In this document: positions 3,378-25,901 of the stretch, piece after piece | How positions within the stretch are numbered: the stretch's first letter is position 1 | How the letters are laid out: every line of letters starts with the position of its first letter | Assembly: GCF_000155895.1 (NCBI RefSeq) | Contig: NZ_DS995298.1 | Span: forward strand, 300,001-332,000 | Source: Candidatus Pelagibacter sp. HTCC7211 | GTDB lineage: Bacteria; Pseudomonadota; Alphaproteobacteria; Pelagibacterales; Pelagibacteraceae | Direction: 5' to 3' | DNA: 32,000 nt | Position numbers and translations under genes: made by a program | Notes under the pieces: model-generated | Told to the model about the DNA's origin: nothing | The model's input: the letters and a program-made list of their open reading frames with translations, nothing else | Databases searched by the model: none

Positions 3378-4283
3378 TTGCTTAATAAAAAAAATAATTT
3401 TTTAGCTTTTTCACTTTTACTTATTCAACCTATATTTATGGCATCTAATTTAATAGTTGCTAGAGGAGGAGTTGAATATGTGCCTCCTATCTCATTAGCT
3501 TTCTGGAGGTGGGCTGTCGTTGTTTTAATACTTCTGCCTTTTACTTTTTCACTTCTGATAAATAATTTTAAGATAATTAAAAAAGAATTTAAAAAATTAT
3601 TCTTCTTAGGTTCTATGGGTTGTGGTGTGTGTGGTGCATTTCCATTTTTAGCAGGAGAAACAACAACAGTTACAAACATGGGAATTATTTATACCTCTTC
3701 ACCTATATTCATCATTTTAATTTCAGCAATATTTTTTAATGAAAAAATTAATTTTATGAAAATTATTGGATTGATATCATGTTTGATAGGTGTTTTTGCA
3801 ATCATTATAAAAGGTGACTTAAATTTATTATTAAATCTGAATTTTACTATTGGTGATTTATGGATGTTGGCTGCTGCTATTGGTTGGGCTCTTTATTCAA
3901 TATATCTATTTTACTGGAAATCAGAGCTACCGATATTTCAAAGATTTACATTAGTGGCTTTTTTTGGAGCAATTAGTTTGCTTCCTTTTTACATAATTGA
4001 AGAAGTAGTTGTTCAGAGAACTTCATTTAATTTACAGTTTTTTTTATGGGTTGTTTTTGCAGCAATATCTCCGGGAATAATTGCTTTTACTCTTTATACT
4101 CAAGCACAAAAAAGTCTCGGAGCATCATTAACCGGTTTCACCCTTTACGTTTTTACAATTTACGCTGCAATTTATGGTTTTATATTTTTTGATGAAAAAC
4201 TAGAAACCTTTCATTATATAGGTACAGTATTAGTGTTCATTGGTGTTTATCTAGCTAAAAAAAATTATGAAACTAAAACGTAG
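3378..4283 (+). CDS. EamA/DMT-superfamily permease (RhaT-like, 10-TM type)
   Basis: 301-aa protein with two similar five-helix hydrophobic halves, typical of EamA-domain transporters. The track start is a TTG at 3378; an in-frame ATG at 3440 is an alternative start. Confidence 0.8.
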   Translation: MLNKKNNFLAFSLLLIQPIFMASNLIVARGGVEYVPPISLAFWRWAVVVLILLPFTFSLLINNFKIIKKEFKKLFFLGSMGCGVCGAFPFLAGETTTVTNMGIIYTSSPIFIILISAIFFNEKINFMKIIGLISCLIGVFAIIIKGDLNLLLNLNFTIGDLWMLAAAIGWALYSIYLFYWKSELPIFQRFTLVAFFGAISLLPFYIIEEVVVQRTSFNLQFFLWVVFAAISPGIIAFTLYTQAQKSLGASLTGFTLYVFTIYAAIYGFIFFDEKLETFHYIGTVLVFIGVYLAKKNYETKT

Positions 4284-5085
4284 GAACTTTTTTTTGGAAT
4301 TAATTATTGGAATTATTGTTATTTACGCTTCTGTATTAATTTTACTTTTTATTTTTCAGCGAAGTTTAATGTATCACCCCCAAGAAAATAATTATTTTGG
4401 CGATAAGTTGGAAGTAGAAATAGAAAAAGTTAAGATCAAAACTTCAGACGATATAGATTTACTAGGTTGGTTTCATAAAAAAGATCTGAAGAACTTTAAA
4501 ACAATTGTTTATTTTCATGGCAATGCGGGGAATCTTAAAAATAGAATTTATAAATTAAATCATTTTAAAGATATGGATGTTAATTTTTTAATAATAGCCT
4601 GGAGAGGTTTTAGTGGTAATTCAGGAAAACCTACTGAAAAAGGGCTTTATAATGATGCTAAAAGTGCAATTATATGGCTTAAGAAATTAGGCTTAACTGA
4701 AAAAGATATTGTGATTTATGGAGAGTCACTTGGCTCTGGAGTTGCAACAGAGATAGCTCAAAATAGTAACTTTGCGGGTTTAGTTCTTGAGACACCCTTT
4801 ACCTCAATGATTGATGCAGCAAAAAATTTTTATCCATATATTCCAGTGTCTCTTTTATTGAAAGATAAATATGATAATCAAAATAAAATTAAAAACATAA
4901 ATATTCCAGTACTAGTAATGCATGGTGAAGCTGATCAGATAGTACCTTTTTGGATGGGTAAAAGAATTTTTGAAATAGCTAATGAACCTAAATATTCTTA
5001 TTTCACAAAATTTGATGATCATATGATGGAATATGATGAAAAGCTTGTATTAGCTTTAAAGGTATTTTTTAAGAGTTTAAATTAA
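4267..5085 (+). CDS. Alpha/beta hydrolase, BEM46/ABHD13-like, with an N-terminal membrane anchor
   Basis: 272 aa with an N-terminal hydrophobic helix (FFLELIIGIIVIYASVLILLFIF), an HGNAGN motif, the nucleophile elbow GESLGSG, and HGEADQIVP and DDH near the C-terminus that could supply the acid and His. It overlaps the EamA gene by 17 nt. Confidence 0.8.
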   Translation: MKLKRRNFFLELIIGIIVIYASVLILLFIFQRSLMYHPQENNYFGDKLEVEIEKVKIKTSDDIDLLGWFHKKDLKNFKTIVYFHGNAGNLKNRIYKLNHFKDMDVNFLIIAWRGFSGNSGKPTEKGLYNDAKSAIIWLKKLGLTEKDIVIYGESLGSGVATEIAQNSNFAGLVLETPFTSMIDAAKNFYPYIPVSLLLKDKYDNQNKIKNINIPVLVMHGEADQIVPFWMGKRIFEIANEPKYSYFTKFDDHMMEYDEKLVLALKVFFKSLN

Positions 5086-5133: not shown

Positions 5134-5697
5134 GTGAAAAAATTACTTTTAATTTCAGTTATTTTATTTTTGTTTAAAAATTCTCTATTTGCTCAAGATA
5201 ATAAACTTATGGTTGATAATTTATTTCATATCGACCAAATGAATTCACATGATGAAAATTTCGCTTTGTATTTTAAATCAAGAGAAAAAGCAATTTTAGC
5301 AAGAGGTGAAAATAGTAACTATATAAATGATTTTCCTAAAGACTTATTTATATATGATTATAAAACAAAAAGCTCTTCTCCTTTAATTTCTTACGAATGG
5401 TTTCCGGCTAGAGCAAAATATTTTTTAAAAGAATATAGTTTTCCAGTTTTTCCTGATGATTTTGCCTATTATCTTTTAGAGGATAATAGGACATTGGTAA
5501 TGATTAGTGCAGTAAAAAGTTTAAATAAAAACTTTAAGTTTGATATTAGTAAAAAAAAATTAGAACTTTATCCAAAAAATGGAAAATTTAATTTTATAAT
5601 TTCGTCTATTGCTAAAAGTTGTGGTCACAACAATTTTAATGATAATTACAAGTGTAGCTTCTATAAACCTTTAATTTCAAGCACTTTGATTAAGTAA
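5134..5697 (+). CDS. Hypothetical exported protein (signal peptide; no recognisable domain)
   Basis: A GTG start gives MKKLLLISVILFLFKNSLFA|QD, a classic signal peptide (Lys-Lys, hydrophobic core, small residues before the cleavage site). The remaining sequence of about 165 aa is Asn/Lys/Phe-rich with no motif I recognise. Confidence 0.6.
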   Translation: MKKLLLISVILFLFKNSLFAQDNKLMVDNLFHIDQMNSHDENFALYFKSREKAILARGENSNYINDFPKDLFIYDYKTKSSSPLISYEWFPARAKYFLKEYSFPVFPDDFAYYLLEDNRTLVMISAVKSLNKNFKFDISKKKLELYPKNGKFNFIISSIAKSCGHNNFNDNYKCSFYKPLISSTLIK

Positions 5698-6607: not shown

Positions 6608-7431
6608 TAAATTTTAATCTCAATATTTTTAATGTCTGAGACTGGCCCTTTCATATGGATACTATTATCTTTATCAATAGAAATTGTTAGTTTGCCCAAT
6701 GCAAATTCAACATCAGCTTGTTTATCTGTTAATCCATTTATATTTGCAGCTACAACTGTAGCACACGCTGCAGTACCACAAGCTTTTGTAAGTCCTGCTC
6801 CTCTCTCCCAAACTTTCACTTTAATCAAATTTCTATTAATAACTTTTGCAAGAGTTACATTACATTTTTCTGGAAAATAATTGTGATTTTCTATTTCAGG
6901 ACCAATTTTTTTTAAATCATAATCTTCGATATCATCTATAAAAAAAACAACATGAGGGTTTCCAACATTAATTGAAGTTCCCCCAATATGCTCATTATTA
7001 TTTTTACTAATAATTTTAATATTCAAATTTTTTGTGTTTAAATCTTTTTTAAGCGGAATTTCATCCCAGTTAGTTTTTGCAACACCAATTTCAGTTTCTA
7101 CTAAATTATTGCCTAAAATTTTTGATTTAAGTGTTCCAGAAGATGTCCAAAGTATAATTTCTTTATCATCGCTTTCTTTTGACAACAATTCAGCAACACA
7201 TCTTGTGCCATTCCCACAAGCACCAGAAATACTACCATCTGAATTGTAAAATTCTAATTCAGCATCTTTTTTGCCACTATTTTTAATGAAAATTAACTGA
7301 TCACATCCAATGAAATCTCGACCACATATTTTAATTATTTGATCTTTACTTAGATTATAATTTTGACTTCTTTGGTCTATGATCACAAAATCATTACCTA
7401 AACCGTCCATTTTAAAAGCTTTAATATCCAT
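6607..7431 (-). CDS. dapF: Diaminopimelate epimerase
   Basis: 274 aa with GNDFVIID at the N-terminus and both catalytic Cys contexts (NSDGSISGACGNGTRC and ERGAGLTKACGTAACA). Its stop shares 1 nt with the ftsY start. Confidence 0.95.
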   Translation of the reverse strand: MDIKAFKMDGLGNDFVIIDQRSQNYNLSKDQIIKICGRDFIGCDQLIFIKNSGKKDAELEFYNSDGSISGACGNGTRCVAELLSKESDDKEIILWTSSGTLKSKILGNNLVETEIGVAKTNWDEIPLKKDLNTKNLNIKIISKNNNEHIGGTSINVGNPHVVFFIDDIEDYDLKKIGPEIENHNYFPEKCNVTLAKVINRNLIKVKVWERGAGLTKACGTAACATVVAANINGLTDKQADVEFALGKLTISIDKDNSIHMKGPVSDIKNIEIKI

Positions 7432-7491
7432 ATATAGATATTTAACTTATTTATTGACTTTTTGAACCTCTATTATAGGTTGTCGTCGTTT

Positions 7492-7568
7492 CCGCAAAAA
7501 CATTAACTTTGCGGTGTCTTTGGAAACAAAGAGATCGACACTAGTCAGCGAGGCTTCGCCCACTAGTG
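7492..7568 (+). ncRNA. Candidate structured RNA element: three consecutive hairpins in the 161-bp dapF/ffh spacer. Family unknown, strand tentative.
   Basis: Hairpin A: ccgcaaa (7492-7498) pairs with tttgcgg (7508-7514). Hairpin B: tctttg (7517-7522) pairs with caaaga (7527-7532) around a GAAA tetraloop. Hairpin C: cactagt (7539-7545) pairs with actagtg (7562-7568), enclosing gcga-GGCT-tcgc (7548-7559). G+C here is about 50%, far above the surroundings. The GNRA-type loop exists only on the plus strand. Confidence 0.35.
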
Positions 7569-7592
7569 CGATTACTGCTGTGCGTAATAAAT

Positions 7593-8951
7593 ATGTTTGA
7601 AAATTTAACAAATAAATTCGAAGAAATTTTTTCTTCTTTAAAAAAGGCTCCTTCACTTAATGAGGCACAAGTAGATGAGGGTTTGAGAAGTATTAGACAG
7701 GCTTTGTTGGAGGCCGATGTTACTCTTGAGGTGGCTAAAGAATTTATTGAGAATGTAAAACCAAAGGTTCTAGGACAAGAAATCATTAGATCAACTTCTC
7801 CTGGAGATATGGTTGTTAAAATTGTCTATGACGAGTTGGTAAATTTATTAGGTGAAACTAATAATGAAATAAACCTTAATGCGGTACCACCTGTACCTAT
7901 GATGCTTGTCGGGCTTCAAGGATCAGGAAAAACAACAACTACTGCTAAATTAGCAAAATATTTAGAAACAAATAAAAAGAAAAAAGTAATGATGGTTAGT
8001 CTTGATATTTACAGACCAGCCGCACAAGAACAGCTTAGATCACTTGGAGAACAAAATAATATTTTAACTCTTCCTATAATAGAAGGTCAACAACCAACCG
8101 ACATTTGTCAAAGAGCAATAAGTGCAGCAAATCTTAATGGAGCTGAAATAATTTTATTTGATACAGCTGGCAGAACTCAAATTGATCTACAAATGATGAG
8201 TGAAATAAAACAAATTGAAAGCGTTATAAAACCCACAGAAACGTTTTTAGTTGCTGACTCGCTAACAGGACAAGTGGCAGCAGCAGTTGCAAAAGAATTT
8301 AAAAATACAGTTAGTCTTTCTGGAATAATTTTGACTAGAGCAGATGGTGATGCAAGAGGTGGAGCAGCTGTAAGTATGAAATATGTTTCAAATGTTCCAA
8401 TAAAATTTTTAGGTATTGGAGAGAAAATAGATAATCTTGAAGTGTTTCACCCAGATAGAATAGCAAATAGAATTCTTGGAATGGGAGATATAGTGTCTCT
8501 TGTTGAAAAAGCTGCTCAAGATCTAGGTGAAGAAAACATAAAAAAAGCAGAGGAGAATTTAAAAAAAGGTCAATTTTCTATGCAAGATTATTTAACACAG
8601 CTTAGACAAATGAAAAAAATGGGTGGTATCGAGGGTATAATGTCTTTTATGCCAGGAGTTTCTAAGATGAAATCTCAAATGGACTCAGCAGGAATTGATG
8701 AAAGTATTATTACAAAAAATGAAGCTATAATTTTATCAATGACTAAAAAAGAGAGAGAGAACCCAAAAATTATAGGAGGTTCTAGAAAAAAAAGAATTGC
8801 TAATGGCTCTGGCACAGATCCAGCCACTATCAATAAATTGCTTAAGCAATTTAAAATGATGTCTGAAATGATGAAAAAGATGTCAAAAGGAAATCTGAAA
8901 GGTATGTCTGACAAAGGAATACCGCCAGAGCTATTTAACCAATTAAAATAA
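7593..8951 (+). CDS. ffh: Signal recognition particle protein Ffh (SRP54 homologue)
   Basis: It has the conserved N-terminus MFENLTNKFEEIF, the motifs GLQGSGKTTT, DTAGR and TRADGDARGG, and a Met-rich M domain (QMKKMGGIEGIMSFMPG ... MMSEMMKKM). I prefer ATG 7593 to the track's GTG at 7566, which adds nine residues unlike any Ffh N-terminus. Confidence 0.95.
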   Translation: MFENLTNKFEEIFSSLKKAPSLNEAQVDEGLRSIRQALLEADVTLEVAKEFIENVKPKVLGQEIIRSTSPGDMVVKIVYDELVNLLGETNNEINLNAVPPVPMMLVGLQGSGKTTTTAKLAKYLETNKKKKVMMVSLDIYRPAAQEQLRSLGEQNNILTLPIIEGQQPTDICQRAISAANLNGAEIILFDTAGRTQIDLQMMSEIKQIESVIKPTETFLVADSLTGQVAAAVAKEFKNTVSLSGIILTRADGDARGGAAVSMKYVSNVPIKFLGIGEKIDNLEVFHPDRIANRILGMGDIVSLVEKAAQDLGEENIKKAEENLKKGQFSMQDYLTQLRQMKKMGGIEGIMSFMPGVSKMKSQMDSAGIDESIITKNEAIILSMTKKERENPKIIGGSRKKRIANGSGTDPATINKLLKQFKMMSEMMKKMSKGNLKGMSDKGIPPELFNQLK

Positions 8952-13842: not shown

Positions 13843-15606
13843 ATGCCAAATTATACTGCTCCAGTAGAAGACATGTTATTTCTCTATGAAAAATTAAGAG
13901 ATAACAAGAACTATAATGAACTGGAAAAATACAACGAAGTTAGTCTAGATTTAGTTAAAGATATTTTAGAGGAAGCAGCTAAAATAAATCAAAATCTTAT
14001 ATTACCATTAGCAGTAGCTGGAGATGAAAATCCAGCTAAATTAGAAAATGGAGTTGTTAGAACTCCTCCAGGATACAAAGAGGCATATAACAAATATATT
14101 GAAGATGGATGGGTATCTTTATCATGTGATCCTAAATATGGTGGACAAGGCATGCCTAAAACAGTTAGCGCATTTTTTGATGAAATGTTGTCTGCAACTT
14201 CTCTTTCTTTTAAACTTTATAGTGAACTAACTATAGGTGCTTACAATTGTATTTTAAGACATGCAGCCGAAGACATGAAAGATAAATATCTTCCAAAAAT
14301 GGTTGAGGGTAAATGGAGCGGAACAATGTGTTTAACGGAACCAGTCTGTGGGACAGATTTAGGAATGTTAAAAACAAAAGCAGTAGAACAATCTGATGGT
14401 ACTTATAAGATTAGTGGACAAAAAATATTTATTACTTCAGGTGATCAAGATCTTACCGAAAATATTATTCATTTAGTTATTGCTAGAGCTTCGGACTCAC
14501 CCCCTGGAACTAAGGGGATTAGTTTGTTTCTTGTTCCTAAATTTATAGTAAATGAAGATGGCACTATTGGACCTAGAAATGGGGTAAGCACTGGATCTGT
14601 GGAGCACAAAATGGGAATTAAAGGTTCTGCAACATGCGTTTTAAATTTTGATGAAGCTGTGGGCTATATGATTGGACCTAAAAATAAGGGTCTAAGCCAA
14701 ATGTTTACTATGATGAACTTAGAAAGAATAATAGTTGGAGTTCAAGGATTAGGAATTTCAGAAATAGCATATCAAAATTCACTTAGTTATGCCAAAGAAA
14801 GAAAACAAGGAAAGACAAATAATTCAAAATCAACTAATGGTGCAGACTTTATTATTGAGCATGCAGATATAAGAAGATCTCTATTAAATATGAAATCTAT
14901 CATTGAAGGTGAAAGAGCTTTATGTTTTTGGCTCTCTCAGCAAACAGAAGTCAGCCTTAATCATCCAGATGAAAAAATTAAACAAGAAGCTTCTGATTAT
15001 GTTTCGTTAATGACACCAGTAGTGAAATCTTTATTTACTGACCTAGCGACTGAAATTACAAGTGATGCGATGCAAATTCATGGTGGATATGGTTTTACAA
15101 AAGATCAAGGTATTGAACAACTATATCGTGATAATAGAATTACTCCAATTTATGAGGGAACAAATTCAGTTCAAGCAGCGGATTTGGTATTTAGAAAACT
15201 ATCAAATAAAAACGGTAACATAATTGGTAATTTTTTAAATATGATTAAGATGGAGTGTGAAAGTAAAAATGAAAAGGTCAAAATCTTTACAAAAGAATTA
15301 AACTATTATTTAGATATTTTATCAAAATTTACTGATTGGATTAATGATAAGAGCAAAGAAGAAAAAGATGATGTTAGTGCAGCAGCAAATGATTATCTAA
15401 AAACGCTTGGTTTTGTTTCATTAGCTTATTCTTGGATTAAAATCTTAGAAGTCAGTTTTAATGATTATGATACAAACAAAGATTTCTATGAAGATAAAAT
15501 CAATACTGCAAAATTCTTTTTTGATAAGGTTTTGCCCAGAGCTGAACATCACTATAAAACTGCAATATCTGGAAGTTCAAATATAATGAATTTCAAATTT
15601 AATTAG
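13843..15606 (+). CDS. dmdC: Long-form acyl-CoA dehydrogenase; probable 3-methylmercaptopropionyl-CoA dehydrogenase
   Basis: 587 aa of the ACAD family (MCLTEPVCGTDLG; QIHGGYGFTKDQGIEQLYRDNRITPIYEGTN with the catalytic Glu context), plus an extra C-terminal domain of about 140 aa. The dmdC assignment rests on its position in a cluster with an acyl-CoA ligase and a GcvT-fold enzyme, as reported for Pelagibacter. Confidence 0.8.
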   Translation: MPNYTAPVEDMLFLYEKLRDNKNYNELEKYNEVSLDLVKDILEEAAKINQNLILPLAVAGDENPAKLENGVVRTPPGYKEAYNKYIEDGWVSLSCDPKYGGQGMPKTVSAFFDEMLSATSLSFKLYSELTIGAYNCILRHAAEDMKDKYLPKMVEGKWSGTMCLTEPVCGTDLGMLKTKAVEQSDGTYKISGQKIFITSGDQDLTENIIHLVIARASDSPPGTKGISLFLVPKFIVNEDGTIGPRNGVSTGSVEHKMGIKGSATCVLNFDEAVGYMIGPKNKGLSQMFTMMNLERIIVGVQGLGISEIAYQNSLSYAKERKQGKTNNSKSTNGADFIIEHADIRRSLLNMKSIIEGERALCFWLSQQTEVSLNHPDEKIKQEASDYVSLMTPVVKSLFTDLATEITSDAMQIHGGYGFTKDQGIEQLYRDNRITPIYEGTNSVQAADLVFRKLSNKNGNIIGNFLNMIKMECESKNEKVKIFTKELNYYLDILSKFTDWINDKSKEEKDDVSAAANDYLKTLGFVSLAYSWIKILEVSFNDYDTNKDFYEDKINTAKFFFDKVLPRAEHHYKTAISGSSNIMNFKFN

Positions 15607-15608
15607 TT

Positions 15609-17225
15609 ATGAGTAGTTACGATACAAACTTAGATAAAAATTCTGCAAATTATGTGCCTCTTACTCCTTTAACATTTTTAGAGAGAGCTAAAGATGTTTA
15701 TCCTAATTATGAGGCTATAGTTTATGAAGATAGAAGTTATACTTGGAGCGAAGTTTGTAAAAGAGCCACTAAGTTTGCTAGTGCCTTGGAAAAAATTGGC
15801 ATTAAAAAAGGAGATACTGTTTCTTTTTTAGCTTTTAATACGCCAGAAATTTTTGAAGCACATTACTCAGTTCCGATGACTGGTGGTGTATTGAATACAA
15901 TAAATATTAGATTAGACGCTAATACAATTGCTTATATTTTAGAACATAGTGAGGCAAAAGTTTTAGTCGTAGATAGACAACTGCATGTGGAAGTAAAAAA
16001 AGCATTAAAGATTTTAGACAAAAAAATTATTGTAATAGATATAAATGATAAACATGCGGATCAGTCTAAATTAGAAAAAATAGGTGATTTAGAGTATGAA
16101 AGTTTTTTGAACACTGGTGATGAAAATTATCTTTATAAAATGCCAGATGATGAATGGCAGGCAATATCGTTAAGTTATACTTCAGGAACTACAGGAAATC
16201 CTAAAGGAGTTGTTTATCATCATAGGGGCTCGTATTTAATGTCAACAGGTAGTGCAGTTGCTTGGAATATGCCCAACAGATTAAATTTTCTAACTATAGT
16301 TCCAATGTTTCATTGTAATGGTTGGTGTTATCCTTGGACAATTGCAATGCTAAATGGAAGAACTATTTGTTTAAGGAATATAGACGTTAAAAAAATTTTT
16401 GAATTAATCGACAAATATAACGTTACGCATTTTGGTGGAGCACCGATCGTACTAAATATGATTACGGGCGCACCTGAGAGTGATAGAAAAAAATTAAAAC
16501 AAAAAGTTCATGTTTTGACCGCTGGGGCTCCTCCACCAAGTATAATTTTTAAAAAAATGAAAGATCTTGGATTTGAAGTAATGCATGTTTATGGTTTAAC
16601 AGAAACTTATGGTCATGTTACTCAATGCGCATGGAATGAAGAGTGGAATGCATATGATGAGGATAAACAAAATGAAATTAAGGCAAGACAAGGCGTGAGA
16701 TATCCAAATACAGAAGGTGTAACAGTTATGGATCCTGAAACTATGAAAGAAGTTCCAAGTGATGGCAAAACCATCGGTGAAATTATGATAAGAGGAAACG
16801 TTGTTATGAAAGGATATTTTAAGGACAAAGAAGCTACTGACAAAGCGATGGCTGGTGGCTGGTTTCACTCAGGAGACCTAGCAGTTATGCATCCAGATGG
16901 GTACGTTAAAATACAAGATAGGTCAAAAGATATAATTATTTCAGGAGGTGAAAATATATCTTCAATTGAGATAGAAAATACACTCTCAAAACACCCATCC
17001 GTTTCTATTGCAGCAGTAGTTGCTAAACCTGATGAAAAATGGGGAGAAGTACCATGTGCTTTTATTGAAATGGTCACTGATAAGCCTACTACCGAAAAAG
17101 AATTAATTGATTTTTGTAAAGAAACTTTGGCTGGTTTCAAAGTACCTAAACAAGTAATTTTTTGTGAGTTACCAAAGACATCCACAGGAAAAATTCAAAA
17201 ATTTGAATTAAGAAAACAATTCTAG
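15609..17225 (+). CDS. dmdB: AMP-forming acyl-CoA ligase; probable 3-methylmercaptopropionate-CoA ligase
   Basis: 538 aa with the AMP-binding signature LSYTSGTTGNPKGV, plus GWFHSGDLAV and the C-terminal PKTSTGKIQK. It starts 2 nt after the dehydrogenase stop. Substrate is assigned from context. Confidence 0.8.
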   Translation: MSSYDTNLDKNSANYVPLTPLTFLERAKDVYPNYEAIVYEDRSYTWSEVCKRATKFASALEKIGIKKGDTVSFLAFNTPEIFEAHYSVPMTGGVLNTINIRLDANTIAYILEHSEAKVLVVDRQLHVEVKKALKILDKKIIVIDINDKHADQSKLEKIGDLEYESFLNTGDENYLYKMPDDEWQAISLSYTSGTTGNPKGVVYHHRGSYLMSTGSAVAWNMPNRLNFLTIVPMFHCNGWCYPWTIAMLNGRTICLRNIDVKKIFELIDKYNVTHFGGAPIVLNMITGAPESDRKKLKQKVHVLTAGAPPPSIIFKKMKDLGFEVMHVYGLTETYGHVTQCAWNEEWNAYDEDKQNEIKARQGVRYPNTEGVTVMDPETMKEVPSDGKTIGEIMIRGNVVMKGYFKDKEATDKAMAGGWFHSGDLAVMHPDGYVKIQDRSKDIIISGGENISSIEIENTLSKHPSVSIAAVVAKPDEKWGEVPCAFIEMVTDKPTTEKELIDFCKETLAGFKVPKQVIFCELPKTSTGKIQKFELRKQF

Positions 17226-17233
17226 GTAATTAC

Positions 17234-18010
17234 TTGATATTTCAGATAGAAAATAAAAATGTTCATGCATCAGATGCTGGGCAAGGTATTGATAGTAAAA
17301 AGGATACTATAATATTTCTTCATGGAAGTGGTCTTTCGCATATTGTGTGGTCTTTAGCTGAACAATTTTTTTCAAATAAAAATTTTAATGTTTTATCACT
17401 TGATTTACCTGGTCATGGTAATTCAGACGGCCCTTGTTTAGATACAATTGAAAAAATTGCTGATTGGATAGAAAATGTACTTAAAAAACTAGATTTAAAA
17501 AAAGTAATACTTATTGGCCACTCCCAAGGATGTTTAGAAATATTAGAATATGCTCATAAATACAAAAATAGGCTTAAAAAGTTAGTTTTTATCGGAGGGT
17601 CATATCGAATGCCAGTTAATCAAGATCTTATAGATCTTGCAAAAAATGGTGATTCAGAATCTGTTAAACTAATGATGAAATGGGGATTTAAAGACTCTAA
17701 AAAATTCATAGGAGGTAATCCAGTCGAAAAAATAATTCAGTCTCCTAGAGACATAAGTGAAATTTTAGCAGTCGATCTTGTTGCATGCAATAATTATTCA
17801 AATGGTTCAATTGCAGCAAAGGAAATAGATTGTCCCTCAATGTTAGTCTTTGGATCTGATGATAAAATGGTTAATTTTGAGGTAGGAAAAAAATTTGCGA
17901 ATTTAATTAATAATTCAATTACCTGTGTGATAGATGATTGTGGTCATATGATAATGATTGAAAAAGCTTTTGAAATGAGAGAGAAGATCCTAGAATTTTT
18001 AAAAAAATGA
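17234..18010 (+). CDS. Alpha/beta-fold hydrolase of unknown function embedded in the dmd cluster
   Basis: 258 aa with the oxyanion motif FLHGSG, the nucleophile elbow GHSQG, an acid candidate in FGSDDKMV and His in [13 protein letters not shown] start is the only in-frame start upstream of the HGSG strand. Its stop overlaps the next gene's start (ATGA, 18007-18010). Confidence 0.85.
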
Positions 18011-19116
18011 AAAAATTTCCAATAGCTAAATCTCGAAGACTTAGAAGTACTCCTTATACAGATAGAATAGAAAGACAAGGGGTAAGCTCTTACACTGTAT
18101 ACAATCATATGTTACTGCCTGCTTCATTTGTTTCGGTAGAGGCAGATTATCATCATTTAAAAGAATTTGTTCAAGTTTGGGATGTTGCCGCTGAAAGGCA
18201 AGTTGAGATATCAGGAAAAGACTCCGCTCAGTTAGTTCAATTGATGACATGTAGAGATCTTTCAAAATCAAAGGTTGGTAAATGTTACTATGCTCCCATA
18301 ATTGATGGACAAGGAAATTTAGTTAATGATCCTATTATTAACAAATTAGCTGAAAATAGATGGTGGTTATCTATTGCTGACTCTGATGTTATTTTTTTTG
18401 CAAAAGGACTTGCTTCAGGTAATAAATTTGATGTTGATATAAAAGAACCTGATGTAAATATTTTAGCTGTTCAAGGTCCTCTTTCAGATAAATTAATGTC
18501 AAAAGTTTTTGGAGAAAAAATATCTCAGTTAAAATTTTTTAATTTTGATTATTTTGAATTTAAAGGTATGAAACATTTTATCGCTCGATCAGGATGGTCA
18601 AAGCAAGGTGGTTTTGAAATTTATGTTGAAAATGCTGAAGCAGGAAAAGAGCTTTATGATTATTTGTTTGAAGCTGGTTTGGAATTTAATGTAAAACCAG
18701 GATGTCCAAATCTGATTGAAAGGATTGAAGGAGCACTTCTTTCATATGGAAATGATTTTGATAATAGAGACAATCCTCTTGAAGCAAATTTTGAAAAATA
18801 CACTAATTTAGATAGTGAAGTAGAATTTTTGGGAAAAGATAGATTAAAAAAAATTAGAGATAAAGGTGTCAAAAGAAAACTAATGGGAGTTAAAATTGAT
18901 CATGATCAAATTGATATGTATTGTGAAAAAACTCTTTTTGATGACAATAATAATATCATTGGCTTTGTTAGATCGGCCACTTATTCTCCAACATTTAAAA
19001 AAGTTATTGGCATAGCAATGATCAATAAACCTTATTGGAATTCAAAGAATTCATTTAAAATAGAGATAAATGAAAAAATTCATTTAGGAAATATTTGCGA
19101 TTTACCCTTCATTTAG
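18007..19116 (+). CDS. dmdA: GcvT-fold aminomethyltransferase-family protein; probable dimethylsulfoniopropionate (DMSP) demethylase
   Basis: 369 aa resembling the glycine-cleavage T-protein family ([22 protein letters not shown]..., [23 protein letters not shown]). No gcvH or gcvP is nearby. It is coupled to the acyl-CoA ligase/dehydrogenase genes, and its length and N-terminus match my recollection of Pelagibacter DmdA. Confidence 0.85.

Positions 19117-23436: not shown

Positions 23437-25901
<2,465 letters not shown>

Follow-up and report, generated by a model that had tools for sequence, protein, structure and literature searches.

An alpha/beta-hydrolase encoded between dmdB and dmdA in SAR11 belongs to an uncharacterised family with a second, metY-linked context

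The hydrolase gene at the dmd locus

The stretch analysed here is 32,000 nt of 'Candidatus Pelagibacter sp.' HTCC7211 (contig NZ_DS995298.1, positions 300,001 to 332,000), a low-GC (G+C content 0.32) Pelagibacteraceae fragment that we refer to as the window. Between the genes for a DmdB-like acyl-coenzyme A (CoA) ligase and the dimethylsulfoniopropionate (DMSP) demethylase DmdA it carries an open reading frame (ORF), hyd1, which a preliminary description of the window had proposed as a candidate for the closing step of DMSP demethylation. That process, as carried out by SAR11, the most abundant bacteria of the ocean, is among the largest marine organic-sulfur fluxes and sets the balance between methanethiol and methionine on one side and the climate-active gas dimethyl sulfide on the other; its completion in SAR11 without the methylthioacryloyl-CoA hydratase DmdD is an acknowledged gap (PMC5069961). 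We find that hyd1 is the dmd-cluster paralogue of a widespread, uncurated and uncharacterised family of approximately 260 aa whose main context is the methionine gene metY. The features of hyd1 are as follows; AF-Est2 is the archaeal esterase discussed below, and coordinates are those of the window unless a locus number (L) precedes them.

17234 to 18010, plus strand: hyd1, alpha/beta-hydrolase ORF of 258 aa between the DmdB-like ligase and DmdA (ORF list, Pfam)
17234 to 17236, plus strand: TTG start codon of hyd1, 8 nt past the stop of the dmdB-like gene (from the sequence)
17321 to 17332, plus strand: predicted oxyanion-hole loop H30-G31-S32-G33 (HGSG), read from the sequence; H30 invariant, G31 at least 90% conserved
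17516 to 17530, plus strand: predicted nucleophile elbow G95-H96-S97-Q98-G99 (GHSQG); S97 and G99 invariant
17522 to 17524, plus strand: codon of the predicted catalytic Ser97 (invariant column)
17774 to 17797, plus strand: cap-helix family signature D181-L-V-A184-C185-N-N-Y188 (conservation and alignment with AF-Est2)
17861 to 17863, plus strand: predicted catalytic Asp210 (invariant column; aligns with D200 of AF-Est2)
17942 to 17947, plus strand: G237-H238 with the predicted catalytic His, part of DCGH (residues 235 to 238); invariant columns

The protein matched Pfam Abhydrolase_1 (PF00561) at 103.5 bits against a gathering score of 25.8 and Abhydrolase_6 (PF12697) at 74.7 bits against 26.3. 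Both the G-x-S-x-G elbow and the Ser-Asp-His order are present, and S97, D210 and H238 were invariant among 61 aligned sequences. By class hyd1 is a serine alpha/beta-hydrolase with the predicted triad Ser97-Asp210-His238, and the ORF, its HGSG, GHSQG and DCGH motifs, its place between the dmdB-like gene and dmdA and its ATGA overlap with the latter were all found as first described.

The closest genome locus to the window was L001 (single-cell genome AG-447-M05), whose proteins were 94%–99% identical across the region. Among 66 loci from Pelagibacteraceae (clade Ia) genomes the hyd1 frame was unbroken in 60 (tblastn alignment of residues 1–258 or 3–258), and the TTG start and the length of 258 aa were kept in 65 and also in the top metagenome homologues. 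Pairwise ratios of nonsynonymous to synonymous substitution (dN/dS, NG86), computed on a reduced sequence set, were 0.10 for hyd1, 0.15 for dmdA, 0.09 for asd, 0.06 for dmdC and 0.04 for dmdB; these are approximate because dS was near saturation (about 1.2). By gene order only, hyd1 corresponds to SAR11_0247 of 'Ca. P. ubique', which in a published microarray matrix gave log2 signals of 6.1–7.6, with 5.3–7.2 for SAR11_0246 and 6.9–8.4 for SAR11_0248, and did not respond to sulfur limitation (PMC5069961). hyd1 is a real, constrained and expressed member of the cluster.

The hydrolase gene tracks dmdB

The genes which flank hyd1 and belong to the pathway are listed below.

13843 to 15606, plus strand: DmdC-like acyl-CoA dehydrogenase (Acyl-CoA_dh_N/M/1 plus an extra Acyl-CoA_dh_C domain)
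15609 to 17225, plus strand: DmdB-like AMP-binding acyl-CoA ligase, constant neighbour of the hydrolase on its upstream side (NF006020, 863.8 bits; cut-off 677)
18007 to 18010, plus strand: ATGA, in which the TGA stop of hyd1 (18008–18010) overlaps the ATG of dmdA (18007) (from the sequence)
18007 to 19116, plus strand: dmdA, DMSP demethylase (NF009133, 553.7 bits; cut-off 410)

The model for methylmercaptopropionyl-CoA (MMPA-CoA) ligase, NF005426, scored the DmdB-like protein at 339 bits, far below its cut-off of 822, so that the name DmdB rests here on synteny and the literature.

The order leuB-dmdC-dmdB-hydrolase-dmdA-asd-sdhC was invariant across the Pelagibacteraceae genome loci, leuB abutting dmdC in 56 of 57 loci close to the window lineage and the gap between dmdB and hyd1 lying between -4 and +8 nt in 64 of 66 Ia loci. 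More divergent SAR11-type clusters were recovered in a metagenome scan and recognised by the shared leuB...asd-sdhC frame. The hydrolase followed dmdB in all 66 genome loci and in 70 of the 74 divergent loci (L081–L154), standing either directly behind dmdB or behind a gene with an ECH (crotonase) domain inserted after it; this adjacency covers the SAR11-type loci with enough upstream sequence together with a separate lineage of GC 0.31. Three loci read dmdB-hydrolase-asd and had no dmdA (L083, L084, L096), two carried an additional gene ahead of dmdA (L137, L139) and in two an island followed the hydrolase (L126, L134). The hydrolase thus tracks dmdB rather than dmdA, the gene to which the preliminary description had tied it.

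The two islands split the hydrolase from dmdA at L126 6771–9560 and L134 6774–10327 and contain glycosyltransferase and methyltransferase genes with a XerD-like integrase; L157 100–1946 is listed with these insertions of SAR11-type loci. The insertion after the hydrolase looks like a hypervariable island.

The ATGA overlap of hyd1 with dmdA was kept in 64 of 65 Ia loci and 30 of 61 others. It had been taken to imply coupled expression, but of the 25 junctions between same-strand genes in the window 8 are overlaps and 17 are no wider than 10 nt, unrelated pairs such as asd/sdhC and leuD/leuB included; because overlaps are routine in this compact genome, we do not regard it as evidence of special coupling.

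Linkage to dmd-type genes outside the lineage, which had been set as a check on the proposal, was found in two settings. The GC-0.31 lineage (L075–L080) has the order FadN-like-dmdB-hydrolase, with no dmdA, and GC-0.55 organisms carry metY-hydrolase-FadN-like beside a DmdA-like gene.

A widespread family downstream of metY

When 1.8 billion cluster representatives were searched exhaustively, 119 proteins were returned at E ≤ 1e-30. One full-length SAR11-type representative was 60% identical to hyd1 and was accompanied by short fragments, while the other full-length relatives were at most 41% identical; the best relatives outside SAR11 were of similar length, with 30%–41% identity and E values of 1e-56 to 1e-30. 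In an alignment of 61 members H30, P59, H61, S97, G99, A184, D210, G237 and H238 were invariant and D181 and C185 nearly so, giving a family signature D-L-x-A-C-x-x-Y in the cap helix. hyd1 has each feature by which we define the family, namely a length of about 258–276 aa, the invariant residues and the D-L-x-A-C cap motif.

hyd1 itself follows dmdB and is not adjacent to metY. The position of distant members is different. In all eight that were looked up (contigs of GC 0.55–0.71, including Aquibaculum and a gammaproteobacterial metagenome-assembled genome) the hydrolase lay immediately downstream of a gene for a 430–438-aa protein, identified as MetY by NF006004 in the four tested (755–802 bits against a cut-off of 636). 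All five upstream genes in this position tested overall passed this model (656–802 bits), and the rest were assigned to MetY by Pfam Cys_Met_Meta_PP, length and tblastn similarity to the tested ones. MetY is O-acetylhomoserine (OAH) sulfhydrylase, which fixes sulfide or methanethiol. The hydrolase also followed metY in metagenome loci L107, L149 and L152, metY-hydrolase gaps ranging from -4 to +43 nt; the exception was L146, a close relative of L149 with no metY nearby. The order in L149 was metA, a cystathionine-synthase-like gene, metY, hydrolase and a FadN-like gene, with metA identified by NF003776 (455.6 bits against 358) and a convergent DmdA-like gene that matched NF009133 best, its 363 bits falling short of the cut-off of 410. 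No riboswitch was found at gathering threshold upstream of the metY-hydrolase operons from 10 sources, nor in an E-value-mode search of the L071, L068 and L107 leaders, so that there is no regulatory support for membership of an S-adenosylmethionine (SAM) regulon.

In two high-GC contigs a hotdog 4HBT thioesterase gene stands directly after the metY-hydrolase pair (L155 8821–9261; L156 8888–9502), and the L156 metY (6692–7988) falls into two ORFs owing to either a frameshift or a sequencing error.

In a rough neighbour-joining tree the dmd-linked sequences formed one clade, beside the lineage linked to FadN-like and dmdB genes, and the metY-linked sequences were spread over several other deep branches; the filling of several deep branches by metY-linked copies suggests that this linkage is ancestral. 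The triad, H36, W39, W150, L178, D181, L182, A184, C185 and M212 were the same in dmd- and metY-linked groups, with D181, A184 and C185 unvaried across 35 sequences linked to dmd genes and 13 linked to metY; Y188 never varied among the former and was kept by 11 of the 13 latter. Positions which switched between the groups were S35/D, Q44/R, Q98/M and K166/G, every dmd-linked copy having Q at residue 98 and 10 of 13 metY-linked ones having M. This pattern would fit a common leaving-group site and a diverged acyl site in the two groups.

The metY context, shared by a second SAR11 paralogue, was not recognised in the preliminary description. Full-text searches, whose scope did not take in papers citing SAR11_0246, returned no paper that mentions the metY or FadN-like associations or the second SAR11 paralogue; they gave no match for SAR11_0247, which is also not mentioned in PMC7157515, and nothing relevant on metY or OAH sulfhydrylase combined with a hydrolase or thioesterase. 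hyd1 falls within an uncharacterised alpha/beta-hydrolase subfamily, and the links of the family to metY and FadN-like genes are findings of this analysis.

A second SAR11 paralogue

The L107-type hydrolase, hyd2, was 42% identical to hyd1, and its clusters were among the most populous in marine metagenomes (1837, 1507 and 1189 sequences). Locus L157 (GC 0.28) reads hom-...-rpsI-rplM, then metY, hydrolase and a second OAH-sulfhydrylase paralogue of 433 aa, then ctaA ... plsX ... H+-pyrophosphatase. Its integrase was 64%–67% identical to integrases of SAR11-type dmd loci, and its order agrees with the HTCC1062 tags of metY (SAR11_1030) and hppA (SAR11_1040), give or take some two genes. From this integrase and gene order we infer that SAR11 carries hyd2 after metY as well as hyd1 after dmdB. 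The metY-hyd2 regions lie at L157 8673–12123 and L107 998–3147 and their junctions are ATGA overlaps. In the microarray data SAR11_1031, the presumed hyd2, was flat under sulfur limitation while metY rose about 8-fold (PMC5069961).

Crotonases in the window and in other clades

The window was confirmed to contain no crotonase, there being no PF00378 (ECH) match among its ORFs of 100 aa or more and nothing at E ≤ 1 in a six-frame tblastn with two crotonase-type queries. hyd1 itself has no PF00378 match and is not a member of the DmdD/crotonase superfamily. The statement that SAR11 lacks a clear DmdD also agrees with the literature: 'Ca. P. ubique' has no DmdD orthologue and for it "alternate enzymes are hypothesized" (PMC5069961), and roseobacters use the crotonase AcuH in place of DmdD (PMC6850173, PMC5395565).

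Other SAR11 clades have crotonase-domain genes beside the hydrolase. A FadN-like protein of 740–790 aa, with an N-terminal 3-hydroxyacyl-CoA dehydrogenase and a C-terminal crotonase domain, was encoded upstream of dmdC in 24 of 24 evaluable divergent SAR11-type loci. Such genes stand beside dmdC/dmdB or metY-hydrolase in organisms spanning GC 0.29–0.71 (examples are L086 371–2599, L108 391–2613, L077 2031–4373, L149 6820–9144 and, on the minus strand, L067 9396–11756), are 39%–49% identical to each other over approximately 775 aa whatever their context, and retain both catalytic Glu residues in the crotonase domain. Between dmdB and the hydrolase, 29 loci carry an OsmC-like gene and, directly upstream of the hydrolase, a gene for a 269-aa, ECHDC3-like crotonase-fold protein (ECH_1 E value 1e-51; NF006008, 389.7 bits against 313; nearest PDB entry human ECHDC3). 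This insertion marks one SAR11 clade (L110 4704–5968; others include L111, L114 and L120–L127), and a different osmC is under a SAM riboswitch in 'Ca. P. ubique' (PMC5069961). The ECHDC3-like protein was considered as the missing hydratase and not adopted: it has Q and G at what we take, from the crotonase reference motif, to be the two catalytic Glu positions.

The preliminary description had the hydrolase replacing the crotonase and expected the two to anticorrelate. Since other SAR11 clades keep the hydrolase alongside FadN-like or ECHDC3-like genes, hyd1 is no stand-in for a missing crotonase; the close relatives of the window have lost crotonases from the cluster. What stands of the original candidacy is a constrained, pathway-linked gene adjacent to dmdB, for which a thioester-hydrolase role is plausible.

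Structure and comparison with characterised enzymes

The AlphaFold2 model of hyd1 (pLDDT 95.2) has a canonical beta-sheet core and a four- to five-helix cap (residues 130–196), and Foldseek aligned it to solved structures with template modelling (TM) scores of 0.80–0.86. The best PDB sequence match, over the full length and with an E value of 3.6e-17, was AF-Est2, a carboxylesterase of Archaeoglobus fulgidus (5FRD), which has the same triad and a TM score of 0.83. The two proteins share only about 23% identity, and AF-Est2 stands beside neither metY nor dmd genes. CoA is a tightly bound fixture of AF-Est2; its pantetheine arm reaches into the active site, its thiol lies 4 Å from Cys172, and the alcohol pocket of the enzyme is formed by L118, V120, L169 and C172 (PMC4861933). 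The hyd1 pocket was assigned through the AF-Est2 alignment, in which these residues correspond to M126, V128, L182 and C185, and D168 to D181. V128, L182 and C185 were invariant or nearly so in both contexts and M126 is the family consensus. The pocket match is indirect but specific support for a putative thiol-type leaving group in hyd1.

No NCBIfam model reached its cut-off for hyd1 or six relatives. The best match of hyd1 was the alpha/beta domain of AcoC (NF011457, 90.6 bits against 307), covering profile positions 116–370, the alpha/beta part only; hyd1 has no lipoyl domain. The enol-lactonase PcaD (TIGR02427) was among the best matches of family members at 63.8 bits against 255.85. Further identities were rejected: BioH, the Joint Genome Institute label of homologues (TIGR01738, 55.5 bits against 206.95), and MetX, which has about 370 aa and a large lid as against the 258 aa of hyd1. 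MetX appeared neither among the 25 listed of 31 NCBIfam matches nor among the 60 listed of 78 PDB matches.

DmdD and AcuH, crotonase-fold methylthioacryloyl-CoA hydratases, act at the same end of the pathway as the candidate role of hyd1, in a fold unrelated to hyd1, which in other SAR11 clades accompanies crotonase-domain genes. DmdD carries out both hydration and thioester hydrolysis (PMC6850173; for the latter also PMC5395565).

Candidate functions

We tentatively favour a putative role for hyd1 as a hydrolase of small thioesters acting at the methanethiol node in the breakdown of MMPA-CoA, a possibility that we hold well short of probable. Methanethiol is common to both contexts of the family, the dmd genes making it and MetY consuming it, which makes a thiol-releasing small-thioester hydrolase the simplest candidate, and AcoC, whose NCBIfam model hyd1 matched best, carries the description acetyl-thioester transferase. 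In such a reaction Ser97 would attack the carbonyl of a thioester arising downstream of DmdB and DmdC, and the thiol would exit through the small pocket of M126, V128, L182 and C185. The leaving thiol would most likely be methanethiol from an S-methyl thioester, or alternatively the pantetheine arm of CoA. Water activated by His238 would then free the acid, so that methanethiol (or CoA) would be liberated and the sulfur could be captured by MetY. Hydration of methylthioacryloyl-CoA would more likely fall to a crotonase-domain enzyme, the FadN-like protein in other clades and one encoded elsewhere in the window lineage.

Several observations weigh against this proposal. S-methyl thioesters are not among the published intermediates of the pathway, and AF-Est2 shows no thioesterase activity on acetyl- or succinyl-CoA (PMC4861933). 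The residues that contact the CoA nucleotide in AF-Est2 (R117, K206, Y207) correspond to R125, E216 and V217 of hyd1, in variable columns. Foldseek matches in the PDB were generic small esterases, perhydrolases, an enol-lactonase and C-C hydrolases at no more than 25% identity, and annotation sources give only generic names ("alpha/beta hydrolase" or the COG-style "pimeloyl-ACP methyl ester carboxylesterase"). The cluster of the window lineage has no FadN-like gene, and SAR11 genome compaction weakens any inference from operons. In addition, hyd1 is disrupted in two single-cell genomes with intact neighbours: an internal deletion at L066 5964–6166 joins the first 11 or so codons out of frame to a C-terminal remnant (tblastn residues 203–255), and L057 6001–6769 has a frameshift near residue 75. 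This damage could be true decay or loss, or an artefact of multiple displacement amplification or assembly.

An acyl-CoA thioesterase, the main role put forward in the preliminary description, is rather unlikely by comparison. It would finish the pathway by converting 3-oxopropionyl-CoA, left once hydration and methanethiol loss have taken place, to malonate semialdehyde, or proofread it by discharging MMPA-CoA or acryloyl-CoA and freeing CoA. The position of hyd1 directly after a CoA ligase, a weak Pfam Thioesterase match (29.7 bits), the CoA-binding relative AF-Est2 and the double activity of DmdD are consistent with it. A further point is the CoA-acylating methylmalonate/malonate-semialdehyde dehydrogenase gene at 23437–24930 (TIGR01722, 708.7 bits against 448.5), 5.4 kb downstream of hyd1, whose product could convert the malonate semialdehyde formed as the pathway ends into acetyl-CoA. 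It leaves unexplained the metY coupling in many lineages with no nearby CoA enzymes; the two metY-hydrolase loci with a hotdog thioesterase would already be provided for, and the residues by which AF-Est2 contacts the CoA nucleotide have not been kept.

Doubtful, and a little more so, is a repair or housekeeping esterase of methionine metabolism, acting on homocysteine thiolactone, homoserine lactone or an acetylated by-product, the dmd copy being a paralogue or placed there by genome compaction. The human alpha/beta-hydrolase BPHL is a homocysteine thiolactonase. The metY coupling, the PcaD-type matches and the constitutive expression of SAR11_0247 and the presumed hyd2, SAR11_1031, agree with such a role, and Asp181, an invariant pocket residue, could serve to bind an amino group. 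Against it, the adjacency to dmdB across SAR11 clades and in a second lineage would go unexplained, as would the recurring FadN-like partner.

The preferred thiol-releasing hydrolase can be extended, improbably in our judgement, to a beta-oxidation-like variant of the DMSP/MMPA pathway in SAR11 and other bacteria, drawn by analogy with formaldehyde oxidation. There the dehydrogenase FrmA oxidises a hemithioacetal to a thioester and the alpha/beta-hydrolase FrmB, S-formylglutathione hydrolase, frees the thiol. The FadN-like dehydrogenase and hyd1 could act likewise on the methanethiol hemithioacetal of 3-oxopropionyl-CoA, although FrmB is of a different alpha/beta subfamily and hyd1 has no PF00756 match. 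DmdB and DmdC would produce methylthioacryloyl-CoA, which the FadN-like enzyme would hydrate. The same enzyme would oxidise the resulting hemithioacetal, before loss of methanethiol, to the S-methyl thioester of malonyl-CoA, which the hydrolase family would cleave to methanethiol and malonyl-CoA. NADH and the CoA ester would be conserved and methanethiol handed to MetY. If this were true, the hydrolase would be a dedicated methanethiol-releasing enzyme ("DmdE") and a partner of MetY in a widespread methanethiol-to-methionine module.

Two further roles are very unlikely. A compact MetX-like acyltransferase, using acyl-CoA to make an O-acyl-homoserine as MetY co-substrate for trapping methanethiol, would match the resemblance of the metY-hydrolase operon to classical metY-metX logic and the acetyltransferase-type alpha/beta domain of AcoC. 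We gave it less weight because metA is in the L149 operon and SAR11 has metX, which in 'Ca. P. ubique' is under a SAM-II riboswitch (PMC5069961); no MetX model or structure is among the listed matches. Direct C-S hydrolysis of methylthioacryloyl-CoA, a MhpC/BphD-like addition-elimination on the vinylogous thioester that would release methanethiol with no crotonase and make hyd1 a true DmdD substitute, would suit a window with no crotonase and the C-C hydrolases BphD, HsaD and MhpC among sequence and structure neighbours, and is opposed by the intact crotonase domains retained with the hydrolase in other SAR11 clades and by C-C hydrolase models scoring far below their cut-offs (62 against 462).

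What was a hydrolase in an operon can now be described as a family that has its own signature motif, two conserved contexts (methanethiol production and fixation) and recurring partners in the FadN-like enzyme, the ECHDC3-like protein and hotdog thioesterases. Should the family release methanethiol or service MetY, it would be a new enzyme of the DMSP pathway and of bacterial methionine biosynthesis and a new marker gene for ocean metagenomics.

Other observations in the window

The semialdehyde dehydrogenase gene lies between sdhB and mdh. An ffh sRNA (Rfam RF01793; 54.4 bits, gathering score 35) was located at 7524–7577, just upstream of the ffh ORF (7566–8951) and overlapping its start. A second alpha/beta hydrolase at 4267–5085 gave a weak Hydrolase_4 match (34.6 bits) and no NCBIfam family, and it is followed at 5134–5697 by a 187-aa ORF with no Pfam family.

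The dmdA gene (18007–19116) occurs as two highly divergent allele classes among close relatives (L002 and L006–L030 compared), with 96%–97% identity in L001 and L003 and 67%–69% in L002 and L006. The dmdB and hydrolase genes beside the divergent alleles remain 89%–98% identical, and this divergence of dmdA alone between conserved flanks suggests recombination or replacement of dmdA by itself.

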